A DNA stretch of 64,000 nucleotides. It comes from Nostoc sp. DedSLP01 (GTDB lineage Bacteria; Cyanobacteriota; Cyanobacteriia; Cyanobacteriales; Nostocaceae). The stretch lies in assembly GCA_034530875.2 (NCBI GenBank), contig JAVRCJ020000008.1:96001-160000 (forward strand), read 5' to 3'. The position numbers and the translations under genes are program-made. The notes beneath the pieces were generated by a model. That model saw only the letters and a list, made by a program, of their open reading frames with translations. It did not search any database and was not told the origin of the DNA. How positions within the stretch are numbered: the stretch's first letter is position 1; the number at the start of each line of letters is the position of its first letter. Positions 10,551-29,362 of the stretch are shown here, one piece after another.

Positions 10551-11420
10551 TTAATTCAAGAATACTGAACCGTTTCGCTCAATTCTTAAAGCACTTCTCC
10601 CTTGTGCTGCATCAGCAGTTTCGTTAAATCTAACTTCTAAGTTTGCTGCTTGTGATGAGGTTTGTGCTTGTGATGAAGTTTGTGGAGTTGCTAACAGTTG
10701 TCCCCCGTCTCCTCGTTGGAATGTCACCGTTACTGGTACGGTTAGCCCTCGGAGTGTGACATCAGATTTACCGCGTAACAATCGGGGTGCGGTATCACCG
10801 ATGACTTGGTAAGTTACATCAGCCGCAGTGTCATTTACCAGTCTGATATTAACTGCATTATTTGTAATTGCGATCGTAGCACTAGGGGTTTGTCGTGGCT
10901 CTTGTGGAGTGCTAGAAGTATCTGGGGTAACCGATCCTGGAGTTCCTGGTATCGCATTTGGTTCTGATGATGTCGAAGGCTGCGAAGTATTTCCAGAACG
11001 ATTATAGGGCGGTTCATTCCGAATACTAGGATTGGGATTAACTGCTGGAGAAGTGTTTTGTGCAGGTGCTTCACCGCCTACACCCAATCTGATTTGTTCT
11101 TGTGATGGATTTGCCTGGTTTTGTGATGTAGTCGTAGGGACAGGAAGAAGCCCTTGTGCTGCTAGCCTTTGGGTTAGTGCATTCGGAGGGCATCCTTCTG
11201 GGACAACAACACGAGAGTTATGTGGTTCTTCGTAGAAAATACGAGGACAAGGGTTAACCTGGGGAGTAGAACGGTTAACTTGAGAAGTAGAAGGGTTAAC
11301 TTGGGAAGGATATTGTTGTGCTAGTGATTGGGGAATTGCTGGTAGGGTAATTAGTAGCCCTCCGCATATAGCGCCCAAGAATTCAGCAGATTTGCGAAAA
11401 ATTTGAGAATTATTAACCAT
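10551..11420 (-). CDS. Secreted Pro/Gln/Ser-rich hypothetical protein
   Basis: Signal peptide, NPCPRIFYEEP...GCPPN cysteine pair, low-complexity linker, beta-rich C-terminal domain. Confidence 0.75.
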   Translation of the reverse strand: MVNNSQIFRKSAEFLGAICGGLLITLPAIPQSLAQQYPSQVNPSTSQVNRSTPQVNPCPRIFYEEPHNSRVVVPEGCPPNALTQRLAAQGLLPVPTTTSQNQANPSQEQIRLGVGGEAPAQNTSPAVNPNPSIRNEPPYNRSGNTSQPSTSSEPNAIPGTPGSVTPDTSSTPQEPRQTPSATIAITNNAVNIRLVNDTAADVTYQVIGDTAPRLLRGKSDVTLRGLTVPVTVTFQRGDGGQLLATPQTSSQAQTSSQAANLEVRFNETADAAQGRSALRIERNGSVFLN

Positions 11421-11907: not shown

Positions 11908-13416
11908 TTAAGACTCAAGAGTTATTGGTAAAGTGACGGTGAAGGTGGTACCGATGCCTTGGGTGCTTTCAACTTGAATATGACCCTGGTGATGTTCGAC
12001 AATAGCAGCAGCGATCGCTAATCCTAATCCCGAACCAGTAACGCTGGCTGTAGCTTTATTTCCACTGCTATGAGTGCGTGCGGGGTCTACCCGATAAAAG
12101 CGGTCAAACAAGCGGGGTATCGCCTCTGGTGGAATTCCTACTCCAGTATCGCTGACTTTAACTTGCAGCTGGCTGCCGATGTAACGTCGTCCAGAAACGC
12201 GATTTATTCCCTCTATCCGCGCCAATTCCACTTTTACCCGTCCACCTGCTGGTGTGTAATGCAAGCCATTGGCAATCAAATTTGTGAACAGTCGCACTAA
12301 TTGATCCCAATTGCCCACAAGGGTAAACCAATTTTCTAGTAATTCCGGGCTAGTTTCCGAGATGTCAGGATCGATTAAATCTAAAGTCAAGGCAATTTTT
12401 TTTTCCGGAAATAATAGCTGTTGTTCTTCAAGAACTTCCATCAGCAAAGCATCCAACGGACAAGGCGCAAAGACATCTTTGCTGATACCACTATCTTGTC
12501 TTGCAAGGAAGAGTAAATCGTTAACTAACCTACCTAAACGCTGCGTTAACCGTTCCACCATCTTTAACTGTTGCCGATATTGCACGGAAGCAGTAGTTTG
12601 TGCCTCTGCTAATTCCAAATCAGCAAGGGCAACTTGCACATTAGTTTGAATTAAAGTAATGGGACTTCTCAGTTCGTGAGAAGCATCAGCAGTAAATTGT
12701 TTGAGACGTTGATAAGACTCATCCACTGGTTCCATAGCTTTACCTGAAAGAAACCAACCACTTGCAGCCACAGAAACCAACATTAACCAAATACCTAGCG
12801 CCAAATCAAAAATAAATTCACGACTCGGTTTAGTGACTTCAAACCAAGGATGGCTAACGCGCAGATATCCTAATACTTGCCGTCCTACTTCCACTCGTTC
12901 TGTGACTTGTCGTAATAAAAGTGGCGAGTGCTGAGTGCTGTTAGCAGTAACGGCACGTTTAGCGTGTGGTGAGTCAGGAGTAAGAAGTTTCTTATCTCCC
13001 CATCTCCCCTTTTCTTCTTTGACTACACGCACAGTTTCACCAGTGCGGTTGGCATGAATGGGAATATTTAGAGGTTCGGATAGCGTTGACCAAATTAATT
13101 CGCCAGTGGGACTAAACCATTCGAGGTCGATGTGGTCATCTTCTACGCTGTCGGCATTATCAGGAAAGCTTGCTTCTACATTAATACGAAATTTATCAGC
13201 ATCAGAATTGACTGGTTCAAGTATGAGGGTAGACGCACAGGGACTTGTTGTTAAACATCGCTCTACTATTTCCACTACATGATTAAGGGTATCGTCTATT
13301 CGCTCAATCAGCGTACTACGCACATATAAGTAGACACCGCTAGCAAACAGTAATAGTAATACAGCAGTTACGGCAGTGTACCAAATTGCTAGACGACGGC
13401 GAGTAGCTTGAAACAT
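11908..13416 (-). CDS. Two-component sensor histidine kinase (probably ManS/Hik27-like)
   Basis: Two TM segments, H-box FTADASHELRSP, N-box LFTNLIANG, DTGVGI, GSGLGLAI; ManS identity from recall of the N-terminus only. Confidence 0.9.
   Translation of the reverse strand: MFQATRRRLAIWYTAVTAVLLLLFASGVYLYVRSTLIERIDDTLNHVVEIVERCLTTSPCASTLILEPVNSDADKFRINVEASFPDNADSVEDDHIDLEWFSPTGELIWSTLSEPLNIPIHANRTGETVRVVKEEKGRWGDKKLLTPDSPHAKRAVTANSTQHSPLLLRQVTERVEVGRQVLGYLRVSHPWFEVTKPSREFIFDLALGIWLMLVSVAASGWFLSGKAMEPVDESYQRLKQFTADASHELRSPITLIQTNVQVALADLELAEAQTTASVQYRQQLKMVERLTQRLGRLVNDLLFLARQDSGISKDVFAPCPLDALLMEVLEEQQLLFPEKKIALTLDLIDPDISETSPELLENWFTLVGNWDQLVRLFTNLIANGLHYTPAGGRVKVELARIEGINRVSGRRYIGSQLQVKVSDTGVGIPPEAIPRLFDRFYRVDPARTHSSGNKATASVTGSGLGLAIAAAIVEHHQGHIQVESTQGIGTTFTVTLPITLES
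12921..13010. repeat. In-frame STRR/SDR-type repeat insertion within the kinase gene
   Basis: GAGTGCTGTTAGCAGTAACGGCACGTTTAGCGTGT (12933-12967) is also found intergenically at 23170 and 59935; adjacent tctccccatctcccc STRR. Confidence 0.7.
13230..13256. repeat. 27-nt SDR5-like insertion splitting a HIP1 site, in frame
   Basis: Minus strand reads GCGAT-GTTTAACAACAAGTCCCTGTGCGTCTA-CCC, encoding ER-CLTTSPCAST-L. Confidence 0.6.
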
Positions 13417-13788
13417 TTTTTGACTCCATTTTTTTTAACTGATTATTTTCAAATTACGTATTTATACGGCTAAAAAATAGCTAAATTTTTGAGTTTTGGT
13501 GATTTTGCTGAGGTTGAACGTTTTACTCAAGAATTACACTCTTGTTGCGGTAAATCTGCTTAATACTATTTTATTCTTTACAGCTAGTATAAAAAATTCA
13601 ATTTCTTAAGCAACCTATATCGAGATTTACCGAAACTATTTTTGAATGCATCTACAACAAATAGAAAAACCGAATTTTAAATGATGAACTATCTCAAAAA
13701 TTAACCAATTTCCAATAGCTTAAATTCCCAAAACATTATTGTGAATATTTTGAAAATTTCCATTCAGACTATTATTGGTATCTCCCTA

Positions 13789-16653
13789 ATGAGATTCAAA
13801 ATCAATGCAAAAATTATTGGAATTTGTTTATTATATTCAGCAATTATCTCTAAAGCTATATTAATTCAACTATCTGCGATCGCTGTAGATGTAAAAAGTC
13901 AACATAGTCTTGATTTAAAAAGTAGTAATTATCAAAAAATAGATAATTTTCAAAGTAAAGTACTTTTAAGACAAACCTTAAAAAATGCCAAATATAGCTC
14001 TGAAAATCCAAAACCTTTACCCAGATTTACCATAGCTGACGTCATCCCAATTGAAGAGTATAAAGTACAACCTCCTAAACCAGATGATGCAGAACAGCAA
14101 GAAACTCAACCAGATAAAACTCAACCCAATACATCAACACAACAAATACTTATACAAAAATTACGTCGTTCCAAAAATCAACAACAAGCACAAAAACAAA
14201 TAATTCTAGATGCCTTAACATTTAGCGCTAATAGATATCCTTGGATTGTTAACCCTACAGATAATCTTACTTTTCAAAATCAATTATTTAAACCAAATTT
14301 TGAAGAAGATTATATAGATACAAATTTAGATATAAAATTTTCTGGCGAAAGTCAGATTATTGATAAATTTACTTATGCTAAATTTCCTAAATCTGACCAG
14401 TTTTATTGGGTACTTGACAATAATAGGATAGTAGTTGAAACCAGAGGCTCCCAGGCAGGGATCATTTATCAAGGAAGAGACACTAATACTTTTATCACCC
14501 AAAATGTTACCTCACAACAGGCATTTTGGGGATTACAATCTCTGTTTGCTATACCTACAGATTTTCAAAATTTAACTGGTGAAGTTGCTACTGATGATAA
14601 TTTTTCTATAATTTCAATAGCAGGACAATTAATAAATCCTGAAGGCATACCTGCTGGCAGAGTTATTATTAATAGTGGGGTTGACAAAAACAACCCTAAT
14701 GTCACAATTCTCAAAAATCCTACTCCGATTATTGGTAGCGGCTCAACTTTAAGCGTTGAGGGCGGGCAAGCTTTATTTCAATTGTTAGATACTACCAATG
14801 CTCCCAAGATTCTGCAAAGCTTTCCCACAACAAACATGCAACCTCTGCTAGATGATGGAAACGTCAGACTTCAAGAGGGCGAAATTATTCCTAAAAGTGC
14901 CTTAGAAGCTACTGGAATCTTTTGGGGAAATATATTAACCGGAGAAGGTTTTGGTTTTACTGCTCCTGTCACTTCCTTTCCAGGTATCAAGGTCGCTCAA
15001 CTGAGGAAATTTGATAACTATGATTTGTTAAATGTAGCAGTCAATCCTTTTCTTTCTCAACCTGAAAAAGACTTTCATTATCTTAATTCTTTAATGTGGG
15101 TATCTTTAGGAAGAAGAGATCCTGAATTTAAAACACTATCTCAAACTCAAGATAGCTCTGATTGGCACAGACTCTATGCTAGCCGTCCTCATAACCGCAC
15201 CTTAATCCAATACGACCCAGTAGATATTAAGGCTACTTACTCTAACATTTTTTCTGCCCCAGGCATATCTCTAACTACTAATTTTAGCGATCTTAGTATT
15301 GATTCTATTCAATCAGTGAATTCTACATTAGGTTTGCTATTGGGCGGAGTTTTTGAAGCTATTAAAGTTAAGAATATTCAAAACGGTTTAGAAGAAGCTA
15401 GAGAAAAATTTAAGAATGGAGAAGGTTTTACACCTTTAAATACACCTGCTACAGCTGTTCAAAGGAGACAAATTAATAATAGACTGAATCGCACTTTAGC
15501 TTATGGTAATTCAGGCAGCGGACTCGAGCAAGTATCTGGAACTTATACACTTCCCAGTAAAATTACTCCTAACAAGTCGAGTATCTTGCAAGTAAGAACC
15601 GGAAATCACAAGCGAGCAGTTCAGTTTCTGGAAAGAAGTATTTCTATCTTAGATGAAGGTGATACATTCTTTTCTGACCTCAGACTCTCTAATGAAAGGT
15701 TTGGCCCTCTCACTTTTATCGGTATCCCAATTCCATTAAATAAGACTTCTATCGATCCTATCAATACTATCAATGAATCTTCTGCTGTAGAAGTAATTTT
15801 GACAAATTCCCAAGGTCAACAATTTGTACAACAATATAGTTCAGCCGATAATACGATAGTACCGCTGCAAGTCCGGTCATTTGATATAGCGTTCGATTAC
15901 ATGGAACTCACCAGAGTTGATAAAATTGGTATTAATTTTAATAGCTTTAATGGTTATCTATCTTTACCAACAGTCGAATTGTTAGCAGCAGGTTCTTCTG
16001 GCGATTTTAACTATACTGCCAATTTGGGAATGTGGTTTAATGTAGATGCTAATTCAGCACCAGGTGTTAATAATAATAATTTAGGAATAGAAGAACCAAC
16101 TTTAGGAATTTATACTAATATTCTGCTCAATTATATTAAAAATGATGTCCGCCTAGATTCTAATAAAAAACCTGTCGCTGTTAATACTCATATACCATAC
16201 TTGAGAATTGACTGGAACAGTGCTTCTAATAAAAATAATCCTTTTTCGACTTTTTTAAGTTATTTCTTTCAACATCAAGAAAGAAATTTTGGTTTCTCCT
16301 TAGCTCCTGGTATCGCTTATATTGAAGGTAATAGCAATGGTGAATTTTTAGGTCTTGTGAATGGAGAGTTTGGTACTAGCCTTGGTTTAAATTTAAAGGG
16401 AAATCTAGAGATTGGCAAAAACTTATTTTTTGAATTTCAGGGGTTGCAAAGAATCAGTAAAAGAATTTCTCTTGGTGCTTATTTAAGAAATTATGCTATA
16501 AATAATGTCGGTTTAAGCAGCCGAGTTTCTGGCTTAAATTATGGATTAATTTTTAGACACACTTTCCCTGACAATGGTGTGTTTATAGAAAGCCAAATTG
16601 GTACGGGTGAAAATGGATTTGACCTTAAATTTCAAGGTGGGTATCGATTTTAA
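13789..16653 (+). CDS. Large exported protein with predicted C-terminal outer-membrane beta-barrel
   Basis: Hydrophobic N-terminal signal, Q/P-rich linker, amphipathic beta-strand periodicity in the last ~250 aa, terminal FDLKFQGGYRF (Y-x-F BAM-type signal); ORF track opens at GTG 13741. Confidence 0.75.
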   Translation: MRFKINAKIIGICLLYSAIISKAILIQLSAIAVDVKSQHSLDLKSSNYQKIDNFQSKVLLRQTLKNAKYSSENPKPLPRFTIADVIPIEEYKVQPPKPDDAEQQETQPDKTQPNTSTQQILIQKLRRSKNQQQAQKQIILDALTFSANRYPWIVNPTDNLTFQNQLFKPNFEEDYIDTNLDIKFSGESQIIDKFTYAKFPKSDQFYWVLDNNRIVVETRGSQAGIIYQGRDTNTFITQNVTSQQAFWGLQSLFAIPTDFQNLTGEVATDDNFSIISIAGQLINPEGIPAGRVIINSGVDKNNPNVTILKNPTPIIGSGSTLSVEGGQALFQLLDTTNAPKILQSFPTTNMQPLLDDGNVRLQEGEIIPKSALEATGIFWGNILTGEGFGFTAPVTSFPGIKVAQLRKFDNYDLLNVAVNPFLSQPEKDFHYLNSLMWVSLGRRDPEFKTLSQTQDSSDWHRLYASRPHNRTLIQYDPVDIKATYSNIFSAPGISLTTNFSDLSIDSIQSVNSTLGLLLGGVFEAIKVKNIQNGLEEAREKFKNGEGFTPLNTPATAVQRRQINNRLNRTLAYGNSGSGLEQVSGTYTLPSKITPNKSSILQVRTGNHKRAVQFLERSISILDEGDTFFSDLRLSNERFGPLTFIGIPIPLNKTSIDPINTINESSAVEVILTNSQGQQFVQQYSSADNTIVPLQVRSFDIAFDYMELTRVDKIGINFNSFNGYLSLPTVELLAAGSSGDFNYTANLGMWFNVDANSAPGVNNNNLGIEEPTLGIYTNILLNYIKNDVRLDSNKKPVAVNTHIPYLRIDWNSASNKNNPFSTFLSYFFQHQERNFGFSLAPGIAYIEGNSNGEFLGLVNGEFGTSLGLNLKGNLEIGKNLFFEFQGLQRISKRISLGAYLRNYAINNVGLSSRVSGLNYGLIFRHTFPDNGVFIESQIGTGENGFDLKFQGGYRF

Positions 16654-16662
16654 TTCCATTGC

Positions 16663-16697
16663 CAAGATACCCAAGCTTTTGAAAAATTCGGGTATCT
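16663..16697. terminator. Hairpin between convergent genes (AGATnCCCGA-type palindrome)
   Basis: AGATACCCAA...TTCGGGTATCT; sibling AGATTCCCGA...TCGGGAATCT near 17559-17594. Confidence 0.55.
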
Positions 16698-16722
16698 CAG
16701 CTTTTTAATTTATAAAATATAT

Positions 16723-17154
16723 CTAATCTAAAGCACCCAAGCCATTATTACCAGCACCTGCTCGAATTATACTTGTCACATCTTGAAGCGAACTAGTATT
16801 ATTTAATAAATTTGCTGCTGTATTCAGGAATGAATTTTGGCTAGAAAGTGTAGTACTCTTAACTATTCCTGGGCTGATAGTTAGACTAGTAATGGTTTCC
16901 TCATTTTGACCTGCTACTCCTCCATAGGTAGGTATAATTTTTACACCTCCTTCAAAATAAGAGCCAGAAGGTAAAGTGACCTCGCCACTAACGCTCAGAA
17001 AAGTGCCAGAAGGTCTAATCAGAGTGACAGCACCGATAACAGTAGCTTGTTGTGCGTTTGCTGGTGCTGCTAAAAAATTTGTGACATTAACTAAACTCAA
17101 TAAACAGATACTTTGATGAATAATTATAGACAATTTGTTAGATAAACTATTCAT
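16723..17154 (-). CDS. Small secreted protein, paralog A
   Basis: AGGAG RBS upstream; signal peptide ending APANA; colinear with 17718-18140; ends IIRAGAGNNGLGALD. Confidence 0.85.
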   Translation of the reverse strand: MNSLSNKLSIIIHQSICLLSLVNVTNFLAAPANAQQATVIGAVTLIRPSGTFLSVSGEVTLPSGSYFEGGVKIIPTYGGVAGQNEETITSLTISPGIVKSTTLSSQNSFLNTAANLLNNTSSLQDVTSIIRAGAGNNGLGALD

Positions 17155-17558
17155 TATTTATAAACTCCTGAATCTCTGGCGCTACTTTTTACTTGACCAT
17201 GTAAAATCAACCTCAACTAATAAAAGTGGAGGTAGAATCTTTCTTTATATTTGTTTTATTGCTTTTGGCAGATAAAAATATAGAACCCTTGGTATGAAAT
17301 TTTTGTTAATAATGGACATGTTTTGGGTTCGTATTGTTACACAAGCTCTCTATTTGCCATTGGATAGGAGTTTCAGGATTTATAATTTATATTGATGTTA
17401 TTAGAGTTATGTAAACGAATGGTGAGGACGCGTATAGTAACACCGACGCTTTTATTCTATTTTCGAGGAATTAAAAGAAAAAATTTAATTTTTTATTGCA
17501 ATATCTAATACTAAATGGCAACATACAGCTGTGCTAACTTATACAAAACCCATGCTAA

Positions 17559-17594
17559 AAGATTCCCGACTTCTTAATAGAAAATCGGGAATCT
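17559..17594. repeat. AGATTCCCGA palindromic repeat / possible terminator
   Basis: AGATTCCCGActtcttaatagaaaaTCGGGAATCT. Confidence 0.6.
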
Positions 17595-17717
17595 AAGCCA
17601 CAAAATAAATATAGGGAACAGACATAGCAATGCTATTTCTCTTCCCTATCATGTATAGATTTATTCAACTGTTGTGTCAGTTAAAAGTTAGAAGTACTTC
17701 CAGGGCAAAAATTTAGT

Positions 17718-18140
17718 CTATTCTAAACCACCTAAACCATTAACGCCAGCACCAGCACGAATGATAGCTGCTTGTGCGCCAATGTCGCCAGCCGCTGCGT
17801 CTAAGGCTGCTGCTGCTGAAGTTACGAAAGGATTGCTGCTAGCAGTGAGCAAACTGGTGTTAGGTGTGCCTGGAGATATAGTTAAATCTGCTACTACTTC
17901 ATCGTCGGCTCCTGATGTGCCAGTGTATGTAGGTGTAATTTTTAGGTCGCTTTCGTAGTAGGCATTTTGGGGCACAGTTAATTCACCACTAACACTGATA
18001 GAAGCACCAGAAGCTCTAACAAGAGTTACAGCACCACGAGCTGCGGATTGACCTGCACTTGCTGGCGCAGCCAGGATATTACCAACGCTAACTAAACCTA
18101 AAAGACAAATGCTTCCTTTAACGATCGCAGAGATTTTCAT
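17718..18140 (-). CDS. Small secreted protein, paralog B
   Basis: GAGGAG RBS precedes ATG 18140 (MKISAIV); signal peptide ending APASA; ends IIRAGAGVNGLGGLE. Confidence 0.85.
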   Translation of the reverse strand: MKISAIVKGSICLLGLVSVGNILAAPASAGQSAARGAVTLVRASGASISVSGELTVPQNAYYESDLKITPTYTGTSGADDEVVADLTISPGTPNTSLLTASSNPFVTSAAAALDAAAGDIGAQAAIIRAGAGVNGLGGLE

Positions 18141-18752
18141 GATTAACAAACTCCTCGTGTTGTTTATCTTTGCGTATTCAATATAACTATTAAATTCAAG
18201 AAAAATCTCAGTGAGAATACTGGATTTTATAAAAATTTCAGCGGTAATAAATTAAAAAAATTAATCAATAAAATTGCTAGTGTGGCTTCAAGAAGAGCAT
18301 CAATATTCTAAAAGATAGAGCTATAGCAGACTTTGTACTTATTGAATATATGTATAGCGCTTGTGGTAATGCTTACAACAACTTATATTGAAAAAAACTA
18401 AATCTAAAAAAACTGCGAGTAAAGCTTTAGACTGCTTGCAACAACAAAAATCTATGTAAAATACATTTAATAATTAGCCCATAAAAATGCCCGTGTCATA
18501 TATTTGCTTAATCTTGAGTCGATTTTCATGAATAATGTGCTGTGGAGAAGGATTTGAATTCTGAGAGATAACGTTGTCGCCTAACATCGCTGTGCTATCA
18601 TACGAAACATTTAAAAGATTGCACCAATTAAAACCAGCTAGAAAACGTAGCTATAACTAACTTTTGTTTCAGGTTACGGTTAAGCACCATTTAACTTACT
18701 ATGTTTAATATCCCCAAGTTAAATGGCTATCTCTGCCTAGCATTAGCTCATT

Positions 18753-20933
18753 ATGGCAAAGTCTAAAAAAAGCACTAATCCCATCAATCTTAACGATCCA
18801 CAATATTATCTTAACCGTGAGTTAAGCTGGTTAGAATTTAATGGCAGAGTTTTACATGAAGCCTGTGACGATCGCACCCCTCTTCTGGAACGCCTAAAGT
18901 TTTCGGCAATTTTCAGTTCTAATTTAGATGAATTTTTCATGGTGCGCGTTGCTGGTTTAAAGCAACAAGTAGAAGCAAAAGTTAGCCTGTTAACTCCCGA
19001 CGGTCGCACGCCACAACAACAGTTAGACGATATCCGGTCTACTCTTATTCCTCAGGTAAAGAAACAGCATCAAAATTTTGAGCAAGTACTCCGCCCTCTA
19101 TTAGCAAAGCACGGGATTCATATCCTGAATTATATAGATTTAAATCAGACACAACGAAATCATCTCGATAGCTATTTTGAAGAACAAGTTTTTCCAGTTT
19201 TGACTCCCTTGGCTGTCGATCCCAGCCATCCGTTTCCTTTTATTTCTAATCTCAGCCTGAATCTGGCAGTGGTGGTAAAAAATCCAGACACCGACGAAGA
19301 ATTTTTTGCCAGAGTTAAAGTACCTAGCGTTTTGCCGCGATTTCTACCCTTACCGCGTGACTTGGCAAGCCAAGATAACGAACAACCGATTCACTGGGTT
19401 GGGGTACCTTTAGAACAAGCGATCGCTCATAACTTGGAATCCCTATTTCCAGGCATGAATATTCAAGAATATCATCCGTTCCGCATTACCCGCGACGCCG
19501 ATTTAGTCTTAGAAGAAGATGAAGCCGACGATCTATTATTAGCGATCGAACAAGAACTGCGAAAACGGCGCTTGGGTGGAAGTCCAGTCCGGCTAGAAAT
19601 TCAATCCCAAACACCAGAACCAGTGCGATCGCGATTATTACAAGATTTAGACTTAACAGACAGCGATGTTTACGAAGTAGATGGCCTTTTGGGATTGCGG
19701 GATTTGATGTCTTTTATGTCCTTGCCACTCCCAGAACTCAAAGATCCGCCACGTCAATCTGTTGTACCACCGCGCCTGCAACGTCTGAGAGAACCGAGTT
19801 TAGACCCAGATGTACTGGAAACGGACGAAGGAAAAGACTTTTTTTCGGTAATTAGGGAAAAAGATTTGTTAGTACACCATCCCTATCAATCTTTTTCGGC
19901 CTCAGTGGTGCGCTTCATTACCTACGCTGCTTATGACCCGAATGTACTAGCCATCAAGATGACTCTTTACCGGACTTCCGGCGACTCACCCATTGTCAAT
20001 GCTTTAATCGCCGCCGCCGAAAATGGCAAGCAAGTATCTGTACTGGTGGAATTAAAAGCACGGTTTGATGAAGAGAATAATATTTATTGGGCAAAACGAC
20101 TAGAAAGAGTTGGAGTTCACGTTGTCTATGGTTTGGTGGGACTCAAAACCCATAGCAAAACCGTAATGGTAGTCCGGCGAGAAAAAGACCGGATGCGTCG
20201 CTACGTTCATATCGGGACTGGTAATTATAACCCAAAAACTGCACGATTGTATACAGATTTGGGATTGTTTAGTTGTCGGGAAGAATTGGGTGCTGACATC
20301 ACAGATTTATTTAATTTCTTAACAGGCTACTCGCGGCAAAAGTCTTATCGAGAAGTACTGGTTGCACCTGTGAATATGCGCGATCGCTTTTTAGCGCTGA
20401 TTCGCCGCGAAATCGAAAATGTTCAAAATGGTTTTTCTGGACGCATTGTTGCCAAAATGAATTCTCTGGTCGATCCGGAAATTATCGCCACTTTATATGA
20501 AGCTTCCCGCGCCGGAGTGCAAATTGATTTAATTGTTAGGGGTATTTGTTGTTTGCGTCCGGGACTCAAAGACATTAGTGAAAACATTCACATAATCAGC
20601 ATTGTCGGTCGCTTTTTAGAACATTCTCGAATTTATTATTTTCATAACAACACACAAGAAGAAATCTATATTGGCAGTGCCGACTGGATGCGCCGCAACT
20701 TAGATCGGCGAGTGGAAGTAATTACCCCCATTAAAGACCCAGATATCGCTAAAGATTTACAAGAGATTCTAGGAATTATGCTTGCAGATAATCGCCAAGC
20801 TTGGGAGTTACAAGCCGATGGTACTTACATTCAACGCCGTCCCTATGAGGGTTCTCCAGAAGCCAATTCACAAAAAACTCTGATGAATATGGCATTACGT
20901 TCAACTGGCGTAACTTCAAATTTGATTGATTAG
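18753..20933 (+). CDS. ppk1: Polyphosphate kinase 1
   Basis: NRELSWLEFN, SNLDEFFMVRVAG, HHPYQSF, ELKARFDE, HIGTGNYN, RFLEHSR, SADWM. Confidence 0.98.
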   Translation: MAKSKKSTNPINLNDPQYYLNRELSWLEFNGRVLHEACDDRTPLLERLKFSAIFSSNLDEFFMVRVAGLKQQVEAKVSLLTPDGRTPQQQLDDIRSTLIPQVKKQHQNFEQVLRPLLAKHGIHILNYIDLNQTQRNHLDSYFEEQVFPVLTPLAVDPSHPFPFISNLSLNLAVVVKNPDTDEEFFARVKVPSVLPRFLPLPRDLASQDNEQPIHWVGVPLEQAIAHNLESLFPGMNIQEYHPFRITRDADLVLEEDEADDLLLAIEQELRKRRLGGSPVRLEIQSQTPEPVRSRLLQDLDLTDSDVYEVDGLLGLRDLMSFMSLPLPELKDPPRQSVVPPRLQRLREPSLDPDVLETDEGKDFFSVIREKDLLVHHPYQSFSASVVRFITYAAYDPNVLAIKMTLYRTSGDSPIVNALIAAAENGKQVSVLVELKARFDEENNIYWAKRLERVGVHVVYGLVGLKTHSKTVMVVRREKDRMRRYVHIGTGNYNPKTARLYTDLGLFSCREELGADITDLFNFLTGYSRQKSYREVLVAPVNMRDRFLALIRREIENVQNGFSGRIVAKMNSLVDPEIIATLYEASRAGVQIDLIVRGICCLRPGLKDISENIHIISIVGRFLEHSRIYYFHNNTQEEIYIGSADWMRRNLDRRVEVITPIKDPDIAKDLQEILGIMLADNRQAWELQADGTYIQRRPYEGSPEANSQKTLMNMALRSTGVTSNLID

Positions 20934-27961: not shown

Positions 27962-29362
27962 GTGCTTCCTGCTAAACGTACAGCTGTATTTTTGAGTTTG
28001 GCTGTTTTATTCACTTCGTTAACAGCCTGTGCTAATACTCCAGTGGCCAAAAACCTTGAAGACTCTTTGGCCGCAGATCCTAAACTGCAAAATAATCCGG
28101 TTGTTTTTGGAGAATCCCAAACAAACCAACCACAAGCACAGCAAAACGACTCAACAGTTCAGTTACCAGCTGATTTTGCCCAAGATATTCCACTATATTC
28201 CAATGCCAAACTACAGGAAGTTATCCCTGCTAGTGGTTCAGAAAACAGAGTTTCAACTCGTTGGTTGAGTTCAGATCCTAGCAACTTGATTGCTAGCTTT
28301 TATCGTAGCCAGTTGCAAACAAATAACTGGCAAATTTTGCAACAGCCTACAGATGATGGAATAGGTGTCTTTGAAGCACGCCGCAATGATTTGCTACTGA
28401 AAGTTGCGATTCAGCCTCAATCAGTAACTAACGCTACACCCAATCAACCCCAAACAGCTACTGAATTAGTGATTGAGTACGTACCAAATACTAGTACTGC
28501 AACAGCACAATCTACCCAAACCACAAATCCTAACAAAACTGCTAATAGCATTCCCCAATCGGGAGATCCCCAGTTCATTGGCCCTGTAGCACCTGAAAAC
28601 CTGGCATCACAGCCACCAAGTACGGCTAATAACCAAACAACTTCTACAGCCATTGAATCTCAAACATTCAACGATCTCAATAAAGCACCAAAAGAATGGC
28701 AACAACACATTCAAGATTTGGCTGCATTGGGTGTTTTGTCGATAGAACCAAAGATAACAAAAAGTAATTCTGCTACAACGAACCAATTTGAACCCGGTAA
28801 AATCGTTACACGCCGGGAATATGCACGTTGGCTAGTTGCTGCTAATAATGCTATGTATGCTAACAATCCAGCTAAACAAATTCGTTTGGCATCAGAAAGT
28901 ACTCAACCTGCTTTTAGCGATGTGTCCTCAAAAGACCCTGATTTTCCAGCAATCCAAGGGTTAGCTGAGGCTGGGTTAATTCCTAGTCCTTTGTCTGGAG
29001 ATTCTACGACTGTTTTATTTCGTCCTGATGCTCCCCTAACACGGGAGATGTTACTGTTGTGGAAATTACCTCTAGACACTCGCCAAGCCTTACCCGCTGC
29101 TAACTTTGAGGCGGTTAAACAAACCTGGGGCTTCCAAGATGCAGCCAGAATTGATTCTAAGGCTTTAAGAGCAGTTTTGGCTGATTTTCAGAATGGGGAA
29201 CAATCGAACATCCGGCGGGTGTTTGGCTATACGACCCTGTTTCAACCCAAAAAATCAGTTACTCGGGCTGAGGCTGCGGCAGTTTTGTGGTACTTCGGAA
29301 CTCAGAGTGAGGGTGTATCAGCTGCTGAGGCATTGAAGTTAAAGCAACTTCCAAACAATTAA
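27962..29362 (+). CDS. Lipoprotein with S-layer homology domains
   Basis: Lipobox LTAC; SLH motifs F.P...VTRREYA, FRPDAPLTRE, FQPKKSVTRAEAA. Confidence 0.88.
   Translation: MLPAKRTAVFLSLAVLFTSLTACANTPVAKNLEDSLAADPKLQNNPVVFGESQTNQPQAQQNDSTVQLPADFAQDIPLYSNAKLQEVIPASGSENRVSTRWLSSDPSNLIASFYRSQLQTNNWQILQQPTDDGIGVFEARRNDLLLKVAIQPQSVTNATPNQPQTATELVIEYVPNTSTATAQSTQTTNPNKTANSIPQSGDPQFIGPVAPENLASQPPSTANNQTTSTAIESQTFNDLNKAPKEWQQHIQDLAALGVLSIEPKITKSNSATTNQFEPGKIVTRREYARWLVAANNAMYANNPAKQIRLASESTQPAFSDVSSKDPDFPAIQGLAEAGLIPSPLSGDSTTVLFRPDAPLTREMLLLWKLPLDTRQALPAANFEAVKQTWGFQDAARIDSKALRAVLADFQNGEQSNIRRVFGYTTLFQPKKSVTRAEAAAVLWYFGTQSEGVSAAEALKLKQLPNN

Follow-up and report, generated by a model that had tools for sequence, protein, structure and literature searches.

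The closest described counterpart of the locus studied here is the cyanobacterial tubular (CT) pilus of Microcystis aeruginosa PCC 7806SL, reported in 2025 (PMC12397347). Its pilin, BH695_0841 or MrpC (PDB 9BTQ), is encoded in the cluster BH695_0841-0836 and builds an 11-nm tube of double-layer antiparallel sheets that run along the axis. The cluster also contains a "cell surface protein," BH695_0836, and an outer membrane (OM) porin that has been proposed to act as an usher-like platform; the assembly of the pilus is stated to be unknown and the genetic tools for Microcystis to be limited (PMC12397347). Our literature search for CT pili since 2024, in which most subscription journals lay outside coverage, found this report alone.

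We analyzed a 64,000-nucleotide stretch of Nostoc sp. DedSLP01 (contig JAVRCJ020000008.1, positions 96,001 to 160,000; the window), in which a block of 5,336 bp (13417 to 18752) lies between a sensor kinase gene (11908 to 13416, minus strand) and ppk1 (18753 to 20933, plus strand). Sequence profiles and a predicted fold identify the products of its two small genes as distant homologs of the CT pilin, and its large gene encodes a predicted OM barrel homologous to that of CT clusters. We consider it probable that the locus makes a CT-type surface tube, in which pilins exported by Sec and freed of their leaders would reach the barrel as single subunits and assemble themselves by lateral antiparallel pairing, the distal gene supplying the major and the proximal gene the minor subunit. 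The genes and their ribosome-binding sites are as follows.

13741 to 16653, plus strand: barrel gene in its longest frame, 970 aa from GTG 13741, C terminus FQGGYRF
13789 to 16653, plus strand: barrel gene from its likely start, ATG 13789; 954 aa, as long as P0001, its copy in the database
16723 to 17154, minus strand: proximal CT pilin homolog, 143 aa, leader ending APANA
17718 to 18140, minus strand: distal CT pilin homolog, 140 aa from the likely ATG at 18140 (reading frame 17718 to 18149, 143 aa)
17165 to 17169, minus strand: AGGAG ribosome-binding site of the proximal pilin gene, 10 nt before the ATG, read from the sequence
18151 to 18155, minus strand: AGGAG ribosome-binding site of the distal pilin gene, 10 nt before the ATG, read from the sequence

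A first-pass annotation of the window, made from the sequence alone, had singled out an AT-rich, HIP1-poor block with only three genes, one for an exported protein of about 950 aa ending in FQGGYRF and two for paralogs of about 140 aa with AxA leaders and AGGAG ribosome-binding sites. This description is accurate. The block has a GC content of 34.1%, compared with 40.9% for the genome (0.7% of 1,551 equal-sized genomic segments are as low), and 1 HIP1 site, compared with a mean of 4.75 (3.6% of segments hold at most one); only three open reading frames (ORFs) of at least 80 aa lie between the kinase gene and ppk1. The large protein (954 or 970 aa) has a leader and a terminal YRF. The small proteins align end to end, with 69 of 139 positions identical (50%, E = 1e-39), and each begins with a hydrophobic leader of the AxA type, ending in APANA in the proximal and APASA in the distal protein. 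The large gene and the small genes each form a single locus in this genome. Both small genes are on the minus strand and converge on the plus-strand large gene, so the three do not constitute one operon.

A reduced variant of the CT pilus cluster

Like the Microcystis cluster, the Nostoc locus places a pilin and a pilin-like gene beside a homologous large OM barrel gene, encodes secreted pilins with two hairpins and a helix-turn-helix (as predicted here), and contains neither chaperone nor ATPase. It differs in that its pilin genes converge on the barrel gene, and the hosts named for its relatives are largely soil, lichen, and plant-associated Nostoc and not bloom plankton. The locus is a reduced variant and not a full CT cluster of the Microcystis type. 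What is new is a Nostoc clade outside the published homolog list, whose 105 data rows include no entry of the genus Nostoc (PMC12397347 Supplementary Data 1), together with a locus free of glycosyltransferase, methyltransferase, and adhesin genes.

The small proteins as distant CT pilins

The first-pass annotation could match the three proteins to no named family and took them for a candidate undescribed system, and our searches of Pfam and NCBIfam likewise returned nothing for them at E ≤ 1. The small proteins nevertheless match a characterized system, the Microcystis CT pilus, an outcome that the first pass had itself named as refuting its proposal. In one relative (locus L078), a small protein encoded next to the barrel homolog matches 9BTQ in a sequence search (E = 4.4e-18), and profiles of the window clade and the CT clade align with a probability of 96.6 (E = 6.5e-10) over 118 columns that include part of the leader. 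A hidden Markov model (HMM) of the mature region, built from 103 CT-clade proteins and none of the window clade (single-domain rows of the 120 matches listed of 251 found), gives the two window genes the top two places when run on the 29,170 frames of the genome: the proximal protein scores 22.7 bits (E = 1.6e-4), the distal protein 16.1 bits (E = 0.018), and the next frame 11.6 bits. Among 1,764 decoys, shuffled or reversed, the highest score was 10.3 bits, and 41 of 84 window-clade proteins fell below an E value of 0.05. The signal peptide and mature chain of roughly 110 to 125 aa that characterize CT pilins are found in both window proteins, with leader cleavage read from the sequence leaving about 109 aa in the proximal and 111 aa in the distal chain.

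An AlphaFold2 model of the mature distal protein (predicted local distance difference test, pLDDT, 88.6) contains hairpins at residues 4-26 and 38-60 and helices at 75-86 and 91-102, a topology of two β-hairpins, PG turn, and helix-turn-helix as published for the CT pilin (PMC12397347). With this model as the query, 9BTQ ranked first both in Foldseek (probability 0.85; next 0.08) and in VIA-align (Z 5.9, root mean square deviation [rmsd] 10.1, 102 residues aligned; next Z 2.9).

Several results weigh against so close a connection to CT pili. The window-clade pilin profile alone does not retrieve 9BTQ from the PDB sequences at E ≤ 10, and neither it nor the barrel profile retrieves any PDB sequence at E < 0.09. 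A joint profile finds 9BTQ at E = 8.5e-16, a figure that is partly circular because 25 of the 124 rows are of the CT clade, and the same alignment fed the fold prediction. The majority residue is common to both clades in only 17 of 111 columns, and the folds agree only modestly (Foldseek E = 0.16, TM score 0.44, rmsd about 10 Å), although AlphaFold is reported to misorient the domains of the CT pilin (PMC12397347). Identity between the window pilins and 9BTQ is about 20%, and the conserved residues differ. Consistently across methods, profiles and predicted fold nonetheless identify the small proteins as distantly homologous to the CT pilin. The system first envisaged, undescribed, of curli, Fap, or usher type, and without relation to CT pili, would accord with the lack of a Pfam or NCBIfam match and with the failure of the window-clade profile to reach 9BTQ; independent profile, fold, and gene-order evidence all indicates the CT pilus cluster, and we find an unrelated system hardly credible.

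The comparisons that the first-pass annotation drew with curli, Fap, and chaperone-usher loci hold only as analogies, and no family match to these systems goes with them. Chaperone-usher pili share with the locus Sec-exported subunits, an OM barrel as the likely platform, and the absence of an ATPase, but they are defined by a PapD chaperone, the usher family, and immunoglobulin-fold pilins; the block has no PapD-like ORF, no usher match was found in Pfam or NCBIfam, and the pilin model is not of the immunoglobulin fold. Curli (CsgA/B/G) and Fap (FapB/C/F) similarly combine major and minor secreted paralogs with an OM pore, whereas their subunits are repeat solenoids and the modeled window subunit consists of hairpins and helices; Pfam and NCBIfam contain no CsgA/CsgG or FapC/FapF match to the locus at E ≤ 1. 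The type IV pili of Nostoc (PilA) are hormogonium-induced surface filaments, as the counterpart of the window locus would be. Unlike PilA, the window pilins have an AxA signal peptide, no prepilin motif, and a mature chain that is predicted to start with a β-hairpin, and no PilB, PilT, or PilQ gene lies at the locus. The absence of a prepilin motif, and of any chaperone ORF in the block, had already been pointed out in the first pass.

The large protein as a predicted outer membrane barrel

The large protein begins with a leader ending in SAIA, followed by a disordered N terminus. Its AlphaFold2 model (pLDDT 79.6) places barrel strands near residues 190-235 and 756-970 (970-aa numbering) and a large insert with long β elements between them. 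Structural alignments span about residue 155 to 970, which points to a barrel whose N- and C-terminal strands close around the insert, and they identify generic barrels only, without a specific family: OprB (Z 12.0, rmsd 5.1, 237 aligned) and OccAB1 (Z 11.9, rmsd 4.4, 300 aligned) lead, and the ushers PapC (Z 8.8, rmsd 5.8, 259 aligned) and FimD (Z 8.2) rank below such porins at about Z 12. The short C-terminal strands mostly alternate in polarity, the long central β elements do not, and the terminal residue is Phe in 94 of 97 long homologs (some loci counted twice). Amphipathic closing strands and a C-terminal aromatic residue, the marks of an OM β-barrel, are thus present in the model, and with the structure searches they uphold the original call of an OM barrel as a prediction.

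Sequence comparison further identifies the large protein as a homolog of the barrel in Microcystis-type CT clusters, with 31-34% identity (32-34% over about 860 aa). One such homolog, DWQ56_22785 (32%), is five locus tags from DWQ56_22810/22805, and another, WP_280653796 (31%), is consecutive with WP_280653797; DWQ56_22810, DWQ56_22805, and WP_280653797 are CT pilins in the published list (PMC12397347 Supplementary Data 1). In one genome (G154), the gene order of pilin, GT41, GT41/FkbM, 232-aa protein, and barrel (34% identical to the window barrel) is that published for BH695_0841-0836. The large protein is also a homolog of Npun_R5192 of Nostoc punctiforme and of the "cell surface protein"/porin of the CT cluster, the link to BH695_0836 itself resting on gene order and locus tags. 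A search of 1.84 billion representatives with the barrel profile gave 78 matches at E ≤ 0.001, the weak ones being short fragments, and revealed no remote branch; the family is closed.

Linkage and distribution

The first-pass annotation had made its case depend on linkage between the large and small genes, and this linkage holds across genomes. The barrel gene is present in 26 of 401 genomes of the phylum and the pilin in 16 (window-clade profile) or 23 (wider profile), all 23 of them among the 26. In 22 of the 23, pilin and barrel share a contig within about 9 kb; in the exception (G218) they are on different contigs, the barrel at a contig end. Among 76 GTDB barrel loci, a count in which kin are not independent and most loci are from Nostoc, 68 contain a pilin, 67 within 1.5 kb and 64 in convergent orientation. 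One pilin copy is found in 18 loci, two in 44, three in 1, and four in 5. Eight of the 76 have no pilin, five of which are cut by contig ends. No further gene family accompanies the pair throughout, and flanks and accessory genes vary; the same kinase flanks 45 of the 76 loci and ppk1 41.

Recent horizontal import was considered as the cause of the low GC content and rejected. In every one of 72 full-length relatives, the barrel coding sequence has a lower GC content than the DNA on either side, and the kinase and ppk1 flanks are kept in relatives; low GC is a property of the family and not a sign of recent import. The locus is old and patchily distributed.

In genomes of family f12, the neighbors of the barrel gene (L074:10751-11707, L075:10620-11594, and L025:239-640) encode secreted proteins that begin with a pilin-like hairpin and end in helices. 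Because they score only E = 0.2 to 41 against the joint profiles, we did not include them among the pilins; they are possibly a very divergent pilin type.

Expression of the homologous locus in Nostoc punctiforme

Npun_F5190 of N. punctiforme is a homolog of the distal gene in the same position (56% identity; 43% for the proximal gene), and Npun_F5191 is taken, by position only, as the proximal pilin gene. For comparison we use Npun_F0676, taken here as pilA; its strict SigF dependence fits the text of the expression study. Npun_R5192 is the barrel, as judged by its peptides (PMC12188702).

The F5190 transcript rises from 5,562 to 313,193 at 12 h of hormogonium induction (56-fold) and stands at 28,626 in a sigJ mutant (PMC6495340 Data Set S1). 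Npun_F0676 reaches 72,877, so that the F5190 peak is four times the pilA level, and phycocyanin alpha is at 29,046 at 0 h (PMC6495340). F5190 depends on SigJ and little on SigF, in which pilA differs. Since pilA was ranked second in expression among protein-coding genes at 12-18 h (PMC6495340) and F5190 exceeds it, F5190 would be first; "5190" does not occur in the main text of that study. The R5192 transcript goes from 5 to 138 at 6 h, peaks earlier than that of the pilin, and was assigned to the SigC regulon (PMC6495340), and that of F5191 stays at 4-9 throughout (PMC6495340 Data Set S1). In hormogonium medium, F5190 was represented by 2 peptides of low score (summed intensity-based absolute quantification [iBAQ] value, 3.5e9) and R5192 by 5 peptides, F5191 was absent, and iBAQ values were 3.2e6 for PilA and 1.0e10 for phycocyanin alpha (PMC12188702). 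We found no publication on Npun_F5190 or Npun_R5192, most subscription journals being outside coverage. These published values are consistent with the division into major and minor subunits proposed in the first pass: the distal gene likely encodes the major pilin and the proximal gene likely a minor, pilin-like subunit.

The same data bear on whether the barrel takes part in assembly. It could be a co-inherited porin or passive anchor of a CT filament exported by another route: it resembles OprB and Occ proteins at least as well as ushers, its transcript is earlier, of another regulon, and far rarer than the pilin's, and some barrel loci have no neighboring pilin. Low, early expression would, however, be expected of an assembly platform, no pilin-only genome occurs among the 401, and the barrel is the sole gene family linked to pilins in all groups. 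We judge a passive barrel unlikely; the product of the large gene likely exports and anchors the fiber.

A proposed route of assembly

In the tube-forming reading that we prefer, Sec would carry both pilins over the inner membrane, and their AxA leaders would be removed. The pilins would then leave through or at the barrel as single subunits, by a putative barrel-pilin contact, because a tube of 11 nm is too wide for a porin-sized barrel. Polymerization would proceed by lateral antiparallel β-sheets and require neither ATPase nor chaperone, with the barrel serving as exit, nucleation point, and anchor. Most subunits would come from the distal gene, whereas the proximal product would be rare and would act as initiator or tip. 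If N. punctiforme is a guide, SigJ would control the fiber, which would be produced chiefly by hormogonia and serve cell-cell or cell-surface attachment, and Nostoc probably makes it in its motile, plant-infecting filaments.

Surface O-glycosylation on Ser/Thr is a trait of CT pilins; here, any glycosylation would come from an unlinked GT41 enzyme. Mature pilin chains contain 23-27 Ser plus Thr residues, and two GT41 (O-GlcNAc transferase-like) genes are found on other contigs of the genome (C16:51469-54418 and C23:59102-62284); one weak FkbM domain match also lies elsewhere. One of the two GT41 genes, probably the counterpart of ogtA (a name given here by inference), comes immediately after a type IV pilin gene.

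Other points tell against a CT-type tube. None of the CT cluster's genes for O-GlcNAc transferase, FkbM methyltransferase, and adhesin is present at the locus, a GT41 gene is adjacent in only 4 of 76 barrel loci, and no adhesin homolog was found in this genome at E ≤ 1e-3. Three genomes, all of family f12, have the barrel without a significant pilin match, and three loci (L105, L152, and L153) have a barrel with long flanks and no pilin nearby; their pilins may be elsewhere or lost. The expression data come from another Nostoc and not from the source strain, and phycocyanin in the filtered medium implies that lysis contributes, which weakens the exoproteome evidence. A quick, weakly resolved pilin tree (single-domain rows of 120-260 aa) puts F5190 and the distal window gene into separate clades, although it cannot decide questions of orthology or origin. 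No filaments have been seen for the window clade.

Some of these observations, together with the low identity to 9BTQ and the different conserved residues, could also mean that the CT pilin homologs form something other than a tube: a surface sheet, a component of sheath or matrix, or a soluble secreted protein. The absence of linked glycosylation and adhesin genes, the recovery of F5190 from 0.2-μm-filtered medium (PMC12188702), and fused two- to four-domain forms in relatives fit such products. The whole topology is kept, however, including the PG turn and the helix pair, the barrel partner is obligate and common to tube-forming clusters, and a transcript above pilA suits the subunit of a polymer (PMC6495340). 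We regard a non-tube product as quite improbable; the alternatives weighed here partly overlap.

The CT-type tube reading extends the CT pilus to Nostoc. The locus reduces the system to pilin and barrel, singling out the barrel as the candidate assembly machine, and places it in N. punctiforme, where deletions are routine, making CT assembly and hormogonium pili testable. It also offers a likely identity for a hypothetical gene whose transcript in hormogonia is fourfold above that of pilA (PMC6495340). Hormogonia are piliated all over, PilA is seen only at septal rings, and pilD mutants make short pili (PMC4390875), a discrepancy on which the locus may bear. As a tentative conjecture that could well fail, the hormogonium pili would at least in part be CT tubes and not type IV pili, with the product of the top protein-coding transcript (F5190, here the distal gene) as subunit; the barrel alone would export and anchor them, in a two-component system without chaperone or ATPase, and they would serve aggregation or attachment to plant or fungal hosts.

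Transcription signals and variation at the locus

Two further features lie between the genes.

16661 to 16701, minus strand: strong hairpin in the gap where the barrel and proximal pilin genes converge (-21 kcal/mol, z -4.9; plus strand z -2.8)
17560 to 17649, minus strand: two hairpins directly 3' of the distal pilin gene (arms 17560-17594 and 17611-17649, z -5.6)

The first is likely a terminator, and a simple terminator scan made no call there. The second pair would terminate or stabilize the distal pilin mRNA, uncoupling the distal from the proximal gene. Consensus scans of the locus for promoters and terminators stayed at chance level. Upstream of the distal pilin gene, positions 18150-18240 (minus strand) look very similar by eye to the promoter region published for Npun_F5190 (SigJ regulon). 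Among RNA runs, one soil metatranscriptome contained 6% of the words and yielded one 194-nt contig that matches 17952-18130 with 95-99% identity; we drew nothing from so weak a signal.

Pilin genes vary among the relatives. Genes in which two, three, or four pilin domains are fused in tandem after a single signal peptide occur at L070:13577-15208, L071:12440-14026, L072:6163-7761, L081:1578-2666, and L073:10495-13793; four-domain fusions exceed the 400-aa cutoff of the published homolog search (PMC12397347). Five loci (L120, L125, L127, L139, and L150) have four pilin paralogs each, one with a long Pro/Gly-rich insertion, and four of these five are followed by a GT41 gene, an arrangement intermediate between the Microcystis-type and the minimal cluster. 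In the otherwise complete-looking cluster of G154, the MrpC-type pilin gene (L085:4359-4920) is in two frames, split by an apparent inserted stretch.

The slot between the kinase gene and ppk1 is a site of gain and loss of surface structures. Two relatives (L169 in G260 and L170 in G234) have an empty slot of about 370 bp. A third (G372, L168:1546-10634) carries another kind of fiber locus there, with genes for a PPC-repeat protein, two secreted proteins, a PapD-domain chaperone, and a 1,134-aa usher-like protein; this locus has no homolog in the DedSLP01 genome (G000). On the other side of the kinase gene, 10551 to 11420 of the window (minus strand) encodes a secreted-looking, Pro/Gln/Ser-rich protein of 289 aa without a Pfam match and with a chance-level NCBIfam row only (E = 0.5), which is conserved next to the kinase with or without the pilus locus.

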